Origin: an uncultured Gemmatimonadales bacterium
GTDB lineage: Bacteria > Gemmatimonadota > Gemmatimonadetes > Gemmatimonadales > GWC2-71-9
DNA: 64,000 bases
Reading direction: 5' to 3'
Assembly (NCBI GenBank): GCA_963771275.1
Contig: CAVYSW010000010.1
Location: forward strand, 480,001 to 544,000
In this document: piece after piece, positions 48,637 to 63,056 of the stretch
How positions within the stretch are numbered: position 1 is the first letter of the stretch
How the letters are laid out: every line of letters begins with the position of its first letter
Notes under the pieces: model-generated
What the model was told of the DNA's origin: nothing
The model's database searches: none
The model's input: only the letters and a program-made list of their open reading frames with translations
Translations under genes and position numbers: made by a program

Positions 48637-49881
48637 ATGCACGTCCTCGTGCTGAATTGCGGTTCGGCGACGCTCAAGTTCCAGATCATCGAGACCGACC
48701 AGCAGCTGATCGAGCGTGACGCCGATCGCCAGCTCGCGAGCGGCGTGCTCGAGCGGGTCGGCGGGCAGTCGCTCGTGACCCTGGAAGCGACGGGCCAACC
48801 CAAGGAGCGGCACGCGGAGCCGATCCGCGACCATCGCACGGCCATCGACTACGTCCTCAAGTGGATCGTCTCCAGCGATTCGCACATCGACTCGATCAAC
48901 TCGCTCGCCGATCTCCACGCCGTGGGCCATCGGGTGGTGCACGGGGGCGAGCGGTTCCGCAAATCGGTGCGGATCGACGCGGCGGTGATCGACGGGATCG
49001 CCGAGTGCATCGAGCTCGCGCCGCTCCACAACCCCGCGAATCTCAACGGCATCAAAGCGGCGGTCGCGCTGCTGGGCGAGGGGATGCCGCAGGTCGCCGT
49101 GTTCGACACCTCGTTTCACGCGACCATGCCGGAGGCCTCGTACCTCTACGGCCTGCCCTACCAGCTCTACCGGCGGCACAAGATCCGCCGCTACGGCTTC
49201 CACGGCACCTCGCACCGCTACATCGCGTACCGCTACCGCCGGATGCTCGGGCTCTCCCCGGAGCAGGTGAACATCGTCACGCTCCATCTGGGCAACGGGT
49301 CCTCGGCGTGCGCCATCAAAGGAGGCAAGTCGTTTGACACCTCCATGGGCTTCACGCCGCTCGAGGGCCTGATCATGGGGACGCGGGCGGGCGACGTCGA
49401 CGCGTCGCTGGTCGGCTACCTCGCGGCCAAGGAGGGCATGCGCCTGCATGAGATCGACGTGCTGCTCAACAAGCAGTCGGGTCTGTTGGGCATCTCCGGG
49501 CTGACCGGGGATATGCGGGAGCTGCTCGAGGAGGAGGCCGAGAACAAGGACCGCCGCGCCGGCCTCGCGATCGACATGTTCTGCGGCCGGGTGAAACGCT
49601 ACATCGGCGCGTACCTGGCCGAGATGGGCGGCGCCGACGCGATCGTGTTCAGCGGCGGGATCGGACAGAACTCGCCCCCCGTGCGCGAGCGGATCTGCGC
49701 GGGGCTCGAGCCGCTGGGCCTGGTGCTCGATCCGGCGCGCAACACCGGGCTTGCGAACGGCGAGGGGGAGATCTCGCGGACCGAGAGCCGACTCAAGGCC
49801 TACGTGATTCCCACCAACGAGGAGCTGCTGATCGCACGAGACACGTACCGGGTCGTGGCGGACCTGCCGAGGCGGTGGTAG
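48637..49881 (+). CDS. ackA: Acetate kinase
   Basis: [53 protein letters not shown]. Confidence 0.95.
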
Positions 49882-49906
49882 CGGAGCCAGCCGGGCTGAG
49901 GACTGG

Positions 49907-49937
49907 GAAAAGCGACGCCCCGCCGCATGGCGGGGCG
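49907..49937 (-). terminator. Intrinsic terminator after tRNA-Pro (may also serve convergent ackA)
   Basis: 9-bp stem CGCCCCGCC/GGCGGGGCG followed by TCGCTTTT on the minus strand. Confidence 0.65.
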
Positions 49938-49939
49938 AG

Positions 49940-50013
49940 TCGGGGCGGCCGGATTCGAACCGGCGACCCCCTGCTCCCAAAGCAGGTGCGCTACCGGACT
50001 GCGCTACGCCCCG
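49940..50013 (-). tRNA. tRNA-Pro(UGG)
   Basis: CGGGGCG acceptor stem, anticodon loop TTTGGGA, GGTTCGAATCC; CCA not encoded. Confidence 0.95.
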
Positions 50014-50099
50014 AGCTCAGGCAAACCTAACAGCACGCGAACGCCGACGCACCCGCTGCCCTCTTGCGCCGTCGCGCGGGGGCGTGGAGCATTGGAGCC

Positions 50100-51242
50100 A
50101 TGTCCCAGCCGCCGTTCTCACCTCCCGGGTCCCCTGATCCGGCGAGGCCGCTTGCCCCGCCCGACTTGCCTCCCCAGGACCTCGAGTGCGTCCCGGTCGA
50201 GCGCGCCGAGACGATCCCCGCCCGATGGTACCGCGACCCGGGGTTCCACGATCTCGAGCGTGACGCAGTGTTCGCGCGCAGCTGGCAGCACGTCGGGCAC
50301 ACGAGCCAGCTTCCCGAGGTCGGCGACCATCTCATCGCCATGGTGGCGCGCCGGCCGGTCCTCCTCGTGCGGGCGGCCGACGGCGCGATCCACGCGTTCT
50401 ACAACGTCTGCCGCCATCGCGGCGGGCCGCTCGCCCTGAAGGACGGGCACGCGCACATGCTGCAGTGCCGCTACCACGGCTGGACCTATCGGCTGGACGG
50501 CATGCTGCGCGGCGTCCCGCACTTCAACCGCACCGAGCTGTTCGACAAGGAGGACTACGGACTCGTCCCGGTCCGGCTCGCGGAGTGGCAGGGGCTCCTC
50601 TTCGTCCATCTCGAGCCCCACCCCGCGCCGCTCGACGGCTTCGTCGCCGGGATCGGCGAGCGGCTGGCGCCGGCGCGGCTCGACGCGCTGCGTTTCGCGA
50701 GACGGGTGGACTACGAGGCGCGCTGCAATTGGAAGGTGTACGTGGACAACTACCTGGAAGGCTATCACGTGCCGCACGTGCACCCGGAGCTCTGCGCGCT
50801 GTACGACTTCCAGGCCTACCGCACCGAGCTCTCCACGTGGTACTCCTTGCAGGTCGGCCCGCTGTCCGGCAAGGACACGCCCTACGGCGTGTCCTTGGGT
50901 GAGGCGCTGTACTACTGGGTGTTCCCCAATCTGATGCTGAACATCCTGCCCGGCCGCCTGCAGACCAACGTCGTGGTCCCGCTGGCGCCGGACCGGTGTG
51001 GGGTGATGTTCCGGTACTACTACGCCGACGTGGAGTCTGCGGCGGGCCGGAGCGTGATCGAGAGCGACCTCGCGTTCTCCGACGCGGTGCAGCGGGAAGA
51101 CATCGAGATCTGCGAGCGCGTGCAGGAAGGACTGGAGTCGGGAGTGTACGACCGCGGCCGGTTCTCGGCCGACATGGAGGCTGGCGTGCACCACTTCCAG
51201 TCACTCGTGAAACAGGCGTTTCGGCGGCACCTCGCCCGCTGA
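50100..51242 (+). CDS. Rieske non-heme iron oxygenase alpha subunit (choline monooxygenase-like)
   Basis: CRHRG...CRYHGW Rieske ligands; NWK..DNYLEGYHVPHVH mononuclear Fe site. Confidence 0.88.
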   Translation: MSQPPFSPPGSPDPARPLAPPDLPPQDLECVPVERAETIPARWYRDPGFHDLERDAVFARSWQHVGHTSQLPEVGDHLIAMVARRPVLLVRAADGAIHAFYNVCRHRGGPLALKDGHAHMLQCRYHGWTYRLDGMLRGVPHFNRTELFDKEDYGLVPVRLAEWQGLLFVHLEPHPAPLDGFVAGIGERLAPARLDALRFARRVDYEARCNWKVYVDNYLEGYHVPHVHPELCALYDFQAYRTELSTWYSLQVGPLSGKDTPYGVSLGEALYYWVFPNLMLNILPGRLQTNVVVPLAPDRCGVMFRYYYADVESAAGRSVIESDLAFSDAVQREDIEICERVQEGLESGVYDRGRFSADMEAGVHHFQSLVKQAFRRHLAR

Positions 51243-51294
51243 GCGCCGGGCCGCGGGGGGCCCCGGAGGCTCAGCGGGGATCGGCAGGGCTTCC

Positions 51295-51320
51295 GGAACT
51301 CTGCGACACCACCGGTGGTT
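51295..51320 (+). promoter_or_regulatory. Candidate ECF-sigma promoter for the leader-cysE-cysK unit
   Basis: GGAAC-N18-GTT ending about 10 nt before the leader SD. Confidence 0.35.
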
Positions 51321-51338
51321 ATTAGGGGGCGGGAGTTC

Positions 51339-51455
51339 ATGATGTGCCAGCGAGGTCACTTGCTCTGCATCCAACGGCTCGCCTGCGCGTGTGGCTGCGC
51401 GCGGGACGGGTCGAGGTGTCGCGACGGCTCGGCTGGCGTCGCTCCCGACGGCTGA
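51339..51455 (+). CDS. Cys-rich leader peptide (37-38 aa) upstream of cysE
   Basis: GGGAG SD then ATGATG; MMCQRGHLLCIQRLACACGCARDGSRCRDGSAGVAPDG-stop, 6 Cys; shorter than any ORF in the supplied track. Confidence 0.7.
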   Translation: MMCQRGHLLCIQRLACACGCARDGSRCRDGSAGVAPDG

Positions 51456-51484
51456 GCGCTGTCGGCAGCCGGCAGCGAGCATCT

Positions 51485-51520
51485 GGACCGCGGCGCCTGT
51501 TGGTCGCGGTCCCTTCGTTC
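51485..51520 (+). terminator. Attenuator-like hairpin between leader peptide and cysE
   Basis: GGACCGCGGC/GTCGCGGTCC 10-bp stem followed by CTTCGTTC (weak U-tract). Confidence 0.5.
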
Positions 51521-51542
51521 GAGGAGGGATCGAGGATCGGGC

Positions 51543-52244
51543 ATGCTGGAGAATTTGGGCGAGGACATTCGGGTGGTGAAAGAGCGTGACCCGGCCGCGC
51601 GGACCACGCTCGAGATCCTGCTGTGCTACCCGGGCCTCCACGCGGTGTGGTTCCACCGCGCGGCGCACGCGCTGTGGGGCGCCGGTCTCAAGACGGCCGG
51701 CCGGTGGCTGTCGCACGTGGGGCGGTTTCTCACGGGCATCGAGATCCACCCCGCGGCGGTGATCGGCCGGCGGTTCTTCATCGACCACGGCATGGGCGTC
51801 GTGATCGGTGAGACGACGGAGATCGGCCACGACGTGCTGCTGTATCAGGGGGTCACACTTGGCGGCGTCTCCCTGGAGCGTACCAAGCGCCACCCAACCC
51901 TCGGCAACAACATTGTGGTCGGTGCCGGGGCGAGGATCCTCGGGCCCGTGCGGATTGGCGACGGGGCGCGGGTCGGCGCCTCGTCGGTGGTCGTGACCGA
52001 CGTGCCGGCCGGGACCACCGTGGTGGGGATTCCCGCGCGCCCGGTGAAGCCGCGCGCGGGGGAGACGGAGCAGCAGATCACCCTGCACCACGAGCGCATC
52101 GCGGACCCGGTAGACCATGTGCTCGCGGCGATCGAGTCGCGGCTCGGCGCCGTGGAGCGTACGCTGCGGCGCCACGCCGAGCGCGAGCGCGGCGCAGACG
52201 AGGCCCTGTCGCGCGCGGTCGGCGCGCGGGATTACGAGATCTGA
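51543..52244 (+). CDS. cysE: Serine O-acetyltransferase
   Basis: [42 protein letters not shown]. Confidence 0.96.
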
Positions 52245-52290
52245 ATCACCTGTCCGCCCGCCTGGGCGGCGCCGGAGACGGGAGAACAGC

Positions 52291-53271
52291 ATGGCGCGCA
52301 TCTTCGAGGACATCACCGAGACCATCGGCAACACCCCGCTCGTCCGCCTACGGCGCCTGACCGACGGAGTCACCGCGGACGTGCTGGCCAAGCTCGAGTT
52401 CTTCAATCCGCTCTCGAGCGTGAAGGACCGCATCGGCGTGGCGATGATCCAGGCAGCCGAGCGGGCCGGGACGATCAAGCCCGGCGACACGCTGATCGAG
52501 CCGACGAGCGGGAACACCGGGATCGCGCTGGCGTTCGTGGCGGCGGCGCGCGGCTACCGCCTGATCCTCACGATGCCGGACACGATGAGCGTCGAGCGGC
52601 GGGCACTGCTGCGCGCGCTCGGGGCGGAGATCGTGCTCACGCCGGGGAGCAAGGGGATGAAAGGCGCGATCGCCATGGCCGGCGAATTGCTGCGTCGGCA
52701 TCCCGGCGCGTTCATGCCGCAGCAGTTCGAGAACCCCGCCAATCCGCAGATCCACCGCGAAACCACGGCGGAGGAGATCTGGCGGGACACCGATGGCGCG
52801 GCCGACATCCTGGTCGCCGGGGTCGGCACCGGCGGCACGCTCACCGGTGTCGCCTCCGTGCTCAAGCGACGCAAGCCGGCGTTCCGTGCCGTCGCCGTCG
52901 AGCCCACCGCGTCGGCGGTGCTCTCCGGCGGGCAGCCCGGCGCTCACAAGATCCAGGGGATCGGCGCCGGCTTCGTGCCCGACATCCTCGATGTCTCGTT
53001 GATCGACGAGGTGGTCGCGATCGACGACGACACGGCGTTCGCGACGGCGCGCCGGCTGGCGCGGGAGGAAGGCATCCTCGCCGGGATCTCGTCGGGTGCG
53101 GCCGTTGCGGCGGCGCTCCGGGTGGCCGCCCGCCCGGAGAGCACCGGCAAGACGATTGTCGTGATCCTGCCGTCGAGCGGCGAGCGCTACCTCACGACGG
53201 CCCTCTACCGGGACATCCTCGACGAGGTGGCGGCCATGCGGGCGGTGGAGGAGGCGCCGGCCACCGTCTAG
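52291..53271 (+). CDS. cysK: Cysteine synthase A
   Basis: IGNTPLV, SVKDRI (PLP lysine), [30 protein letters not shown]. Confidence 0.96.
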
Positions 53272-53305
53272 GACCGGCGGCGTCGGCCCGCGGTCGCGAC
53301 GGTGC

Positions 53306-53938
53306 CTAGCGGAGCCCGCCCGTCGCGAGCCAGGCCGCGAATGCGGCGATCGCGCGACCGCGATGGCTCACGCCCGCCTTCTCCTCCGGCGTGGCGTCGC
53401 CGAAGCTCTTTGCCAGATCGTCGGACAAGAACAGCGGGTCGTAGCCGAACCCGCCAGTCCCCTGCGGCGCCTCGAGGATGCGACCGGTACAGGTGCCCTC
53501 GAACGCCCGGGGAATCGCGTCGTGCCGGGCGAGGAACACGGCCACGCAGCGGTAGCGCGCGCGCCGCCGCTCGGGCGACGCGCCCGCGAGGCGCCGCAAC
53601 AGTTCCGCGTTGTTCGCGGCGTCCTGCTCGCGCGGGTCAGGCGTGGGAAGGGCGAAGCGGCGCGAGCGCACACCCGGCGCCCCGCCCAGCGCGAACACCT
53701 CGATGCCGGAGTCCTCGGCAAGCGTCGGCATGCGCGCGAGCTTGGCGAAGTACTCGGCCTTGCGCCGGGCGTTGCCCTCGAACGACCCGACATCCTCGAT
53801 CCCGGCCTCCTCGGGGCGCTCCCACAGGCCGCGATCGTCCGGGAAGACGGGCTCACAGGCGGCGTCCGCGAGCAGTTGACGGATCTCGCGCTGCTTGCCG
53901 GGGTTCCGCGTCGCCACCAGGAGCTTGGGATGACTCAT
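53306..53938 (-). CDS. rdgB: Non-canonical purine NTP pyrophosphatase (Ham1/RdgB)
   Basis: ATRNPGK, EDSG, GAPGVRS, GFGYDP, SHRGRA; coupled to rph. Confidence 0.93.
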   Translation of the reverse strand: MSHPKLLVATRNPGKQREIRQLLADAACEPVFPDDRGLWERPEEAGIEDVGSFEGNARRKAEYFAKLARMPTLAEDSGIEVFALGGAPGVRSRRFALPTPDPREQDAANNAELLRRLAGASPERRRARYRCVAVFLARHDAIPRAFEGTCTGRILEAPQGTGGFGYDPLFLSDDLAKSFGDATPEEKAGVSHRGRAIAAFAAWLATGGLR

Positions 53939-62959: not shown

Positions 62960-63056
62960 TGGCGGGAGCGTGTGGGAATCGAACCCACCGGAGCCGCCAA
63001 TGGCGCCTCCCAACGGTTTTGAAGACCGCGCGGGACACCAGCCCCAATCCACCCCC
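62960..63056 (-). tRNA. selC: tRNA-Sec(UCA)
   Basis: Anticodon loop CTTCAAA, 6-bp D-stem with TGGT loop, long variable arm, G73 and encoded CCA; 97 nt. Confidence 0.93.

Follow-up and report, generated by a model that had tools for sequence, protein, structure and literature searches.

A probable cysteine-sensing leader peptide of atypical design upstream of cysE-cysK in a Gemmatimonadales bacterium

Introduction

In the classical leader-peptide attenuators, which are the trp, his, leu, thr and pheA leaders of Proteobacteria, a short open reading frame (ORF) led by a Shine-Dalgarno (SD) sequence and rich in codons for the end product, which are usually in tandem, lies, together with alternative hairpins, in front of the biosynthetic genes. 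For cysteine, sensing by ribosomes has to our knowledge been shown experimentally only in mycobacteria, and it has been proposed for a few other groups. Here we describe an SD-led upstream ORF (uORF) with six cysteine codons that stands directly before cysE and cysK, the genes for serine O-acetyltransferase and cysteine synthase A, in an uncultured Gemmatimonadales bacterium. The DNA analysed, called the window throughout, is a stretch of 64,000 nucleotides from contig CAVYSW010000010.1 of assembly GCA_963771275.1 (G000:C10:480001-544000), and positions are counted from its first letter. The leader is probably a new case of the kind of cysteine-sensing uORF already published, with an atypical design. 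It differs from the classical attenuators in having no hairpin-plus-U-tract terminator, no antiterminator linked to ribosome position, and dispersed regulatory codons.

Leader ORFs that sense cysteine have been described in Actinobacteria (PMC1262725; 10.1101/834739). Those of Mycobacterium come without terminators (PMC1262725). Mycobacterial short ORFs (sORFs) with poly-Cys runs have been shown to work by making a sequestered ribosome-binding site accessible (10.1101/834739), and such leaderless sORF attenuators, found at Ms5788A and at five other loci, make up a “Cys ribulon” (Canestrari et al., 10.1101/834739). The window shares with that system a short ORF with Cys codons before cysteine genes, a high-G+C genome and a design in which no terminator is needed, as well as, in its predicted folds, a structure that would sequester the ribosome-binding site and whose relief is proposed to come from ribosomes paused at Cys codons. 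The mycobacterial sORFs, however, are leaderless and carry at least two consecutive Cys codons, whereas the uORF in the window is SD-led and has no adjacent Cys codons. In mycobacteria the stalled ribosome sits on the inhibitory duplex itself, while in the window some 50 nt separate the anti-SD strand from the end of the uORF. Finally, the ribulon comprises several loci in mycobacteria, and a single locus was found in the window genome.

The leaders of the earlier actinobacterial report also resemble the window in having Cys-codon ORFs before cysteine genes while other parts of an attenuator are missing, but they belong to a different phylum and their Cys runs lie near the stop codon, whereas the cluster in the window sits 18 codons before it (PMC1262725). 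Another relative is the uORFC-8-2 motif found upstream of cysS in Rhodobacterales, for which a role as a sensor of tRNA-Cys charging has been proposed (Brewer et al. 2021, PMC8632094). There too the Cys codons fall within the first stem of the leader. The motif nevertheless has two tandem Cys codons, a clear U-run terminator, cysS as its target and 145 conserved examples, and the window leader is a singleton. In the literature searched, from which most subscription journals and supplements fell outside, we found no leader of this kind in Gemmatimonadota, as the first-pass annotation of the window had supposed, no Cys leader of cysE or cysK outside Actinobacteria, and no description of a wider class of Cys leaders tied to adjacent cysK/cysE operons.

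A cysteine-rich reading frame before cysE-cysK

The uORF occupies 51339-51455 on the plus strand. It opens with two consecutive ATG codons (51339 and 51342), so that it has 38 codons, or 37 from the second start, and it closes with TGA at 51453-55. The encoded peptide, MMCQRGHLLCIQRLACACGCARDGSRCRDGSAGVAPDG, has cysteine at residues 3, 10, 16, 18, 20 and 27 (four TGC and two TGT codons). Three of these form the cluster TGC GCG TGT GGC TGC (51384-51398), read as C-A-C-G-C, which contains the proposed sensing codons. The SD sequence GGGAG lies at 51331-51335. Its GGAG begins at -10 from the second ATG, which falls inside the range of -13 to -9 where SDs peak in this genome; motifs of the SD kind stand 5' of 42% of 1117 ATG-start genes, compared with 12.5% in a control window. 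All these elements lie where the first-pass annotation had placed them. The uORF is also the sole sense-strand ORF of at least 10 amino acids in the 300-nt leader, that is, the spacer between the stop codon of a Rieske-type oxygenase gene and cysE.

The two genes that follow are what the same annotation had taken them to be. On the plus strand at 51543-52244, cysE encodes a short-form serine O-acetyltransferase of 233 amino acids (TIGR01172, 238.2 bits against a cut-off of 210.65), whose homologues align from residue 1. It is followed on the same strand by cysK at 52291-53271, which encodes a cysteine synthase A of 326 amino acids (TIGR01139, 470 bits against a cut-off of 350.95) and has GGAG at -10 relative to its ATG. 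An SD-led, Cys-rich uORF thus stands directly upstream of the pair.

The cysteine content of the uORF exceeds chance. When the 300-nt leader was shuffled 5000 times with its dinucleotides preserved, 0.24% of the shuffles had an ORF of 15 or more amino acids with at least six Cys, 0.6% had three Cys within five residues, and 0.02% had both. Among 8754 ATG-initiated ORFs of 20-60 amino acids taken from all six frames of the genome, 1.4% have three Cys within five residues and 33 (0.38%) combine both features. The uORF is 10 to 100 times rarer under the null than an ORF with a plain Cys cluster. Its position is also specific. Outside a crude gene mask, 68 of the 6529 small ORFs in the genome have at least three Cys in six residues, and 27 of the 68 have a gene on the same strand within about 450 nt downstream. 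Only one of these 27, the uORF described here, precedes a cysteine or sulfur gene; Pfam assigns none of the other 26 downstream proteins to such functions. The meeting of a Cys-cluster uORF with a cysteine operon is therefore specific, and this genome has no multi-locus regulon comparable to the Cys ribulon.

Cysteine uORFs at related operons

Upstream regions of loci with cysE or cysK homologues were scanned, with the antisense strand serving as control. Across 208 loci, uORFs with at least three Cys in six residues number 15 on the sense strand and six on the antisense strand, and those accompanied by a canonical terminator number five and zero, respectively; the five are in genomes G416, G418, G419, G460 and G138. 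When 234 loci are sorted by gene arrangement, adjacent cysK-cysE loci have uORFs with CC or CxC in 7 of 12 cases when the sense strand is read and in 2 of 12 when the antisense strand is read; G138 enters this tally twice, as L266 and L338. For the order cysE-cysK the figures are 3 of 14 against 0 of 14, although two of the three cases, L287 and L290, lie within the N-terminal regions of long-form cysE genes and are probably spurious. There is no excess where cysE stands alone (17 against 17 of 153) or cysK stands alone (3 against 5 of 51). Judging from these counts, the enrichment is confined to adjacent cysK/cysE pairs. Counted by lineage, roughly four adjacent short-form cysK/cysE operons have a Cys uORF and five do not. 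About half of the sampled operons of this type carry one, which sets the prior for such an element in the window. The enrichment of Cys codons that the first-pass annotation had proposed to look for upstream of relatives' cysE and cysK does recur in adjacent operons, and it includes non-tandem arrangements such as CFCCSC and C-x-C.

One group of such leaders comes from G416 (L236, the same place as L108) and its relatives G418 (L237) and G419 (L239), where the leader lies about 120-300 nt upstream of cysK in the order cysK-cysE. Their uORFs have 26 codons with four to six consecutive Cys, mostly TGT, and six in a row in G416. Each comes with a sigma-70-like promoter, an SD and a hairpin-plus-U-tract terminator, and looks like a textbook case. 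G460 (L246) has the same gene order as the window, cysE-cysK. Between about 160 and 20 nt upstream of cysE it shows a promoter (TTGACA-17-TATGCT), then an SD and a 23-codon uORF with CCCC, then a GC hairpin followed by eight T. The fifth locus, from G138 (L266 = G138:C76:10405-14061, positions 245-470), belongs to the same class as the window genome and has a 44-codon uORF with CFCCSC directly before cysK-cysE, followed by a clean 13-bp terminator; no clear SD is visible there.

Another form, the Chloroflexota type, is represented by four minus-strand leaders: L073:1273-1532 (from a Longilinea metagenome-assembled genome), L164:803-1062, L353:1456-1715 and L354:1311-1570. Their uORFs of 11-21 codons end in A/T-C-M/V-C-L-R/E-R-G, with non-tandem Cys, and the leaders share an invariant TGCRTGTGTCTG..GCGGGGCT, sigma-70-like promoters and U-rich terminators. 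Among them the nucleotides of the Cys region do not vary, and this region seems to pair with an AG(C/T)CCCGC element farther downstream. In L353 the leader precedes a DUF4395 gene, a thioredoxin-like gene and then cysK. A profile of this leader type run with nhmmer against the window, the genome and all loci left the window leader unmatched at E values up to 10, and a scan of four comparator loci against Rfam gave no match.

All these leaders (G138, G416/G418/G419, G460 and the Chloroflexota type) share with the window the two genes and a short-form cysE, at 50-66% identity, and their uORFs span 11-44 codons with two to six clustered Cys. The G138 uORF is similar to that of the window in length and placement, with its cluster 14 rather than 18 codons before the stop. 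The comparators all have hairpin-plus-U-tract terminators and, where the sequence can be read, sigma-70-like promoters, whereas the window leader has neither, and there is no resemblance in sequence between their leaders and that of the window. At L334 (G047), a weak 12-codon uORF, MTCCEEVRKRIS, with two adjacent Cys stands at -69 to -30, immediately in front of a cysK sharing 67% identity with that of the window; the remaining 11 loci with cysK in that family, f10, have no such uORF. A phylum-wide scan for runs of five TGY codons matched 328 of 401 genomes, mostly out of frame, and none of the 30 loci fetched adjoins cysK or cysE, so that its output was set aside as noise. Three genomes flagged as unpublished (G020, G202 and G084) contribute to tallies alone and to nothing said here of individual loci.

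Structure of the leader RNA

The leader RNA is more structured than chance. It contains nine perfect stems of at least 8 bp where shuffles average 2.0 (P = 0.008). For 51339-51545 the minimum free energy (MFE) has a z-score of -3.6, with equally stable folds in 0 of 200 shuffles, and for the whole spacer the z-score is -2.7. This structure does not extend to the 5' part of the leader (51243-51338), which is no more structured than its shuffles (z = -0.44). A GC-rich hairpin without a U tail (51243-51280, plus strand; local fold -20.7 kcal/mol) directly follows the oxygenase stop codon. The strongest local hairpin, at 51375-51413 on the plus strand (-27.8 kcal/mol), encloses the Cys cluster and is present in the MFE folds.

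Downstream of it come four helices, all on the plus strand and all existing as the first-pass annotation had drawn them. Helix A (51445-52/51458-65; -12.9 kcal/mol, or -22.9 in its extended form) holds the uORF stop codon in its loop and is exclusive with helix B (51457-65/51469-77; -14.3 kcal/mol). Hairpin C (51485-94/51503-12; -20.3 kcal/mol) has 10 bp and an 8-nt loop, is followed by CTTCGTTCG, and stands 29 nt past the uORF stop and 30 nt before cysE; a 10-bp hairpin of this sort occurs in 22% of 1000 shuffles, and so is not by itself beyond chance. It competes with helix D (51509-16/51523-30; -11.7 kcal/mol), which an additional pairing (51498-505/51535-43) extends over the whole of 51498-51543 (-22.8 kcal/mol). 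In addition, bases 51420-25 are complementary to 51503-08 in the 3' arm of hairpin C, another pairing already proposed in the first pass. Helix D does mask GGAGGG, as had been claimed, but GGAGGG does not serve well as the SD of cysE, since it ends 14 nt before the ATG. The sequence that fits is GAGGA at 51532-51536 on the plus strand, 6 nt 5' of the ATG, which is the likely SD judging from the sequence and from spacing in the genome. In its extended form, helix D takes in GGAGGG, some of GAGGA and the start of cysE. As for hairpin C, it may be a weak or non-canonical terminator, or else a fold that would hold the anti-SD strand. A scan of 49500-53500 against Rfam returned nothing credible in the leader (the best match was whalefall-1, E = 6.5).

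A tentative model of cysteine sensing

From its sequence and setting, the uORF is somewhat more probably than otherwise a genuine cysteine-sensing leader peptide. The fuller proposal, that it is a translated leader peptide which registers how much charged tRNA-Cys is available and adjusts the expression of cysE-cysK by the mechanism below, is close to evenly balanced. By analogy, a leader nearer to the terminator-free, translational type of mycobacteria than to a trp-type terminator switch is favoured, and a translational competition between C and D is preferred because hairpin C has no U-tract, because terminators are barely enriched, and because of the resemblance to Mycobacterium. Consensus terminators in two 20-kb stretches of the window number 7, against 4.7-4.8 expected per 20 kb. 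A design without a terminator is plausible here since such elements are hardly enriched.

In this model, when cysteine is scarce ribosomes would pause at the Cys codons, chiefly C16, C18 and C20 within the -27.8 kcal/mol hairpin and possibly C27. The pause would alter the fold downstream, so that hairpin C holds the anti-SD strand (51507-16); with the ribosome-binding site of cysE left open, expression would go up. With ample cysteine, the ribosome would reach the stop codon and leave, and the leader would relax into the D fold that masks the cysE site. A weak contribution of hairpin C to termination may be added to this. The particular wiring through C and D is doubtful. A broader reading is tentative and falls a little short of even: SD-led, dispersed and non-tandem Cys codons placed in a hairpin could sense tRNA-Cys without a terminator, and the window leader would be one lineage-specific form of a wider class of Cys-leader attenuators at adjacent cysK/cysE operons. 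This class would have arisen or been remodelled several times over, in no fewer than five lineages (a Gemmatimonadota-labelled clade, G138, G460, the Chloroflexota type and the window genome).

Points against the model and alternative explanations

Several results weigh against a sensing leader, and the first of them concern the switch itself. A footprint model gave equilibrium pair probabilities for a 30-nt ribosome standing at the start, at the stop or at any one of the Cys codons. For a transcript ending just after hairpin C, the probability of C is 0.82-0.98 with a ribosome stalled at Cys codons, 0.89 with the RNA free and 0.10 with a ribosome at the stop. This is the wrong sign for the terminator of a biosynthetic operon and the reverse of a classical attenuator. 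In the full-length leader, extended helix D dominates every ribosome scenario (P 0.85-1.0): footprints on Cys codons do not release it at equilibrium, C stays at or below 0.15, and GAGGA is unpaired with a probability of about 0.4 throughout. The stall at Cys27 is the only one for which C goes up in each of the three transcript variants, and the rise is small (0.10-0.14). Local folds vary with the site at which the RNA is cut. The mutually exclusive helices had first been read as parts of a candidate attenuator, but A/B and C/D turn out to be separate pairs of alternatives, linked neither to each other nor to the Cys codons. The same model applied to the five canonical comparators gives a clear switch in L239, a partial one in L236 and L237, and none in L246 and L266; because it fails on two of five canonical cases, its failure here is weak evidence.

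The remaining points against concern the uORF and its distribution. Unlike those of the five terminator-bearing comparators, its Cys codons include no adjacent pair. Two of the three clustered codons arise from an in-frame TGCGCG repeat that also builds the -27.8 kcal/mol hairpin, so that the cluster could be a by-product of hairpin structure. A scan of the leader found no consensus promoter. Taking the AT-rich patch GGTTATTAG (51317-25) for a -10 element would leave the uORF nearly leaderless; no -35 is seen by eye, the idea is speculative, and the SD of the uORF speaks for a start that is not leaderless. In the genome itself, Cys-rich uORFs are absent upstream of cysS, of both other cysK paralogues and of the NIR_SIR pair. 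Within the sample of the phylum, a Cys-cluster uORF was found only in G138 among 28 loci with cysK orthologues, and a convincing one upstream of cysE at none of 27 cysE loci. A search with the leader DNA in six genomes of the same genus, 71-89% complete, returned no orthologous leader. Across 185,579 species genomes and in JGI metagenomes, the best matches to cysE reach 57-70% identity and are scattered over many phyla.

The foremost alternative is that the uORF is a chance ORF in a structured, GC-rich 5' untranslated region or spacer. The hairpins would then have another purpose, for instance in stabilising the RNA, at the end of the upstream gene, or for some protein or ligand; the Cys codons would simply fall out of the TGCGCG hairpin sequence, and cysE-cysK would be regulated otherwise. 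Such an ORF would explain why there is no evidence of conservation, no tandem Cys, no promoter or terminator consensus and no ribosome-dependent change of fold. Small ORFs with Cys clusters do arise by chance at 70% G+C, as is seen from the 26 of 27 that precede unrelated genes and from the six of 208 loci that have one on the antisense strand. What this explanation leaves aside is the joint rarity of six Cys and a cluster, the SD at optimal spacing against a background of 12.5%, the single coincidence with a cysteine gene in the genome falling on the cysE-cysK operon, and the fact that roughly half of the adjacent cysK/cysE operons with this type of cysE carry Cys uORFs on the sense strand only. 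On this balance we consider a chance ORF unlikely, while giving it real weight.

A classical trp-type transcription attenuator, in which hairpin C is an intrinsic terminator and a Cys stall favours an antiterminator, is improbable. Hairpin C is a strong 10-bp stem placed between the uORF stop and cysE, the segment 51420-25 can pair with its 3' arm, and five related operons use just this design, with clear U-tracts. The first-pass annotation had called the hairpin terminator-like. A scan of 50800-52000, however, called no terminator, and the tail CTTCGTTCG, with four T in eight positions rather than a U-tract, fails it, although the terminator of a tRNA-Pro gene in the window also has a modest tail, TCGCTTTTCC. 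Moreover, it is the 3' arm of C that the candidate antiterminator pairs with and not the 5' arm, which, being adjacent, should have the kinetic advantage. The response of hairpin C computed above, with C likely at Cys stalls and unlikely at the stop codon, has the wrong sign.

Still less probable is a relic, that is, a canonical Cys attenuator that was acquired horizontally and has decayed, losing its U-tract and tandem Cys and keeping little or no function. The distribution of cysE is patchy enough for such a history. A protein search did not find it in any of six genomes of the same genus (71-89% complete), and it is present (E at most 1e-25) in 65 of 401 sampled genomes of the phylum, mostly in a long form with 100-200 extra N-terminal codons. 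The closest in-phylum cysE, from G138, is of the same class and 56% identical. In the cysE tree, which was midpoint-rooted for drawing only, the branch of the window gene is long and unresolved and lies close to the Cys-leader rows G138 and G460, and no donor can be named; comparators at 65-68% G+C retain clear promoters and terminators. Decay, on the other hand, is hard to reconcile with an intact ORF that has six Cys, an SD and no frameshift, or with a leader that is still strongly structured. Strains about 98% identical also keep the uORF, with one synonymous change only. Near-identical sequence occurs in four DNA runs: the X2 and X3 contigs match the window at every position of the leader that they cover, and X4 and X5, which may be one data set filed twice, each give one 342-nt contig with six differences from the window. 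Those listed are 51449 C>T, 51477 G>A and three in cysE codons 4-5 (51553-55). The first, the one substitution in the uORF, changes GAC to GAT and a C-G pair of helix A to U-G; the second opens the end pair of helix B. These variants are compatible with a functional leader, two leader substitutions being too few for a test of selection.

It is scarcely credible that the product of the uORF is a small Cys-rich protein acting in its own right: the ORF is intact and SD-led and has a G+C content of 0.64, 0.66 and 0.82 at codon positions 1, 2 and 3, but the peptide has no CxxC-type metal motif and no homologue among proteins of 25-81 amino acids in a collection of 5.8 billion clusters, and its one marginal match (E = 2.7e-4, in four stretches of a 353-amino-acid protein, among 1.84 billion representatives) was judged spurious.

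Genomic context

The genome (G000) is 3.86 Mb long, with 70.3% G+C and an estimated completeness of 96.7%. On its 5' side the leader is bordered by the Rieske-type oxygenase gene (50064-51242, plus strand), identified by a family scan. The one convincing canonical terminator near the locus, at 49916-49937 on the minus strand, lies just downstream of tRNA-Pro (49939-50013) and consists of a 9-bp all-GC stem followed by the TCGCTTTTCC tail. The PAPS-reductase family (PF01507) was not found in this 96.7% complete genome, and cysE-cysK looks like a patchy, possibly acquired addition that is fed by sulfide instead of sulfate assimilation. Elsewhere in the window, a tRNA-SeC gene at 62960-63056 on the minus strand indicates that the organism probably uses selenocysteine.

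The order of cysE between trmJ and iscR-iscS is an arrangement of Proteobacteria. In a genome of the same family as the window's, a cysE 62% identical to that of the window lies at L002 (G023:C1:6458-9973) between apparent trmJ and iscR-iscS genes, identified by eye from their translations, and this contig may be foreign or misbinned.

Concluding remarks

If the leader before cysE-cysK works as proposed, ribosome-mediated control by cysteine would extend to the direct cysteine-synthesis pair in Gemmatimonadota, and clustered but non-adjacent Cys codons would be able to sense in a genome where canonical terminators are hardly used. Of greater use, perhaps, is the wider pattern. Cys uORFs are enriched only at adjacent cysK/cysE genes, with sequences that differ by lineage, and they supply clean, testable examples, one of which heads a DUF4395-thioredoxin-cysK arrangement, together with a rule for finding more.

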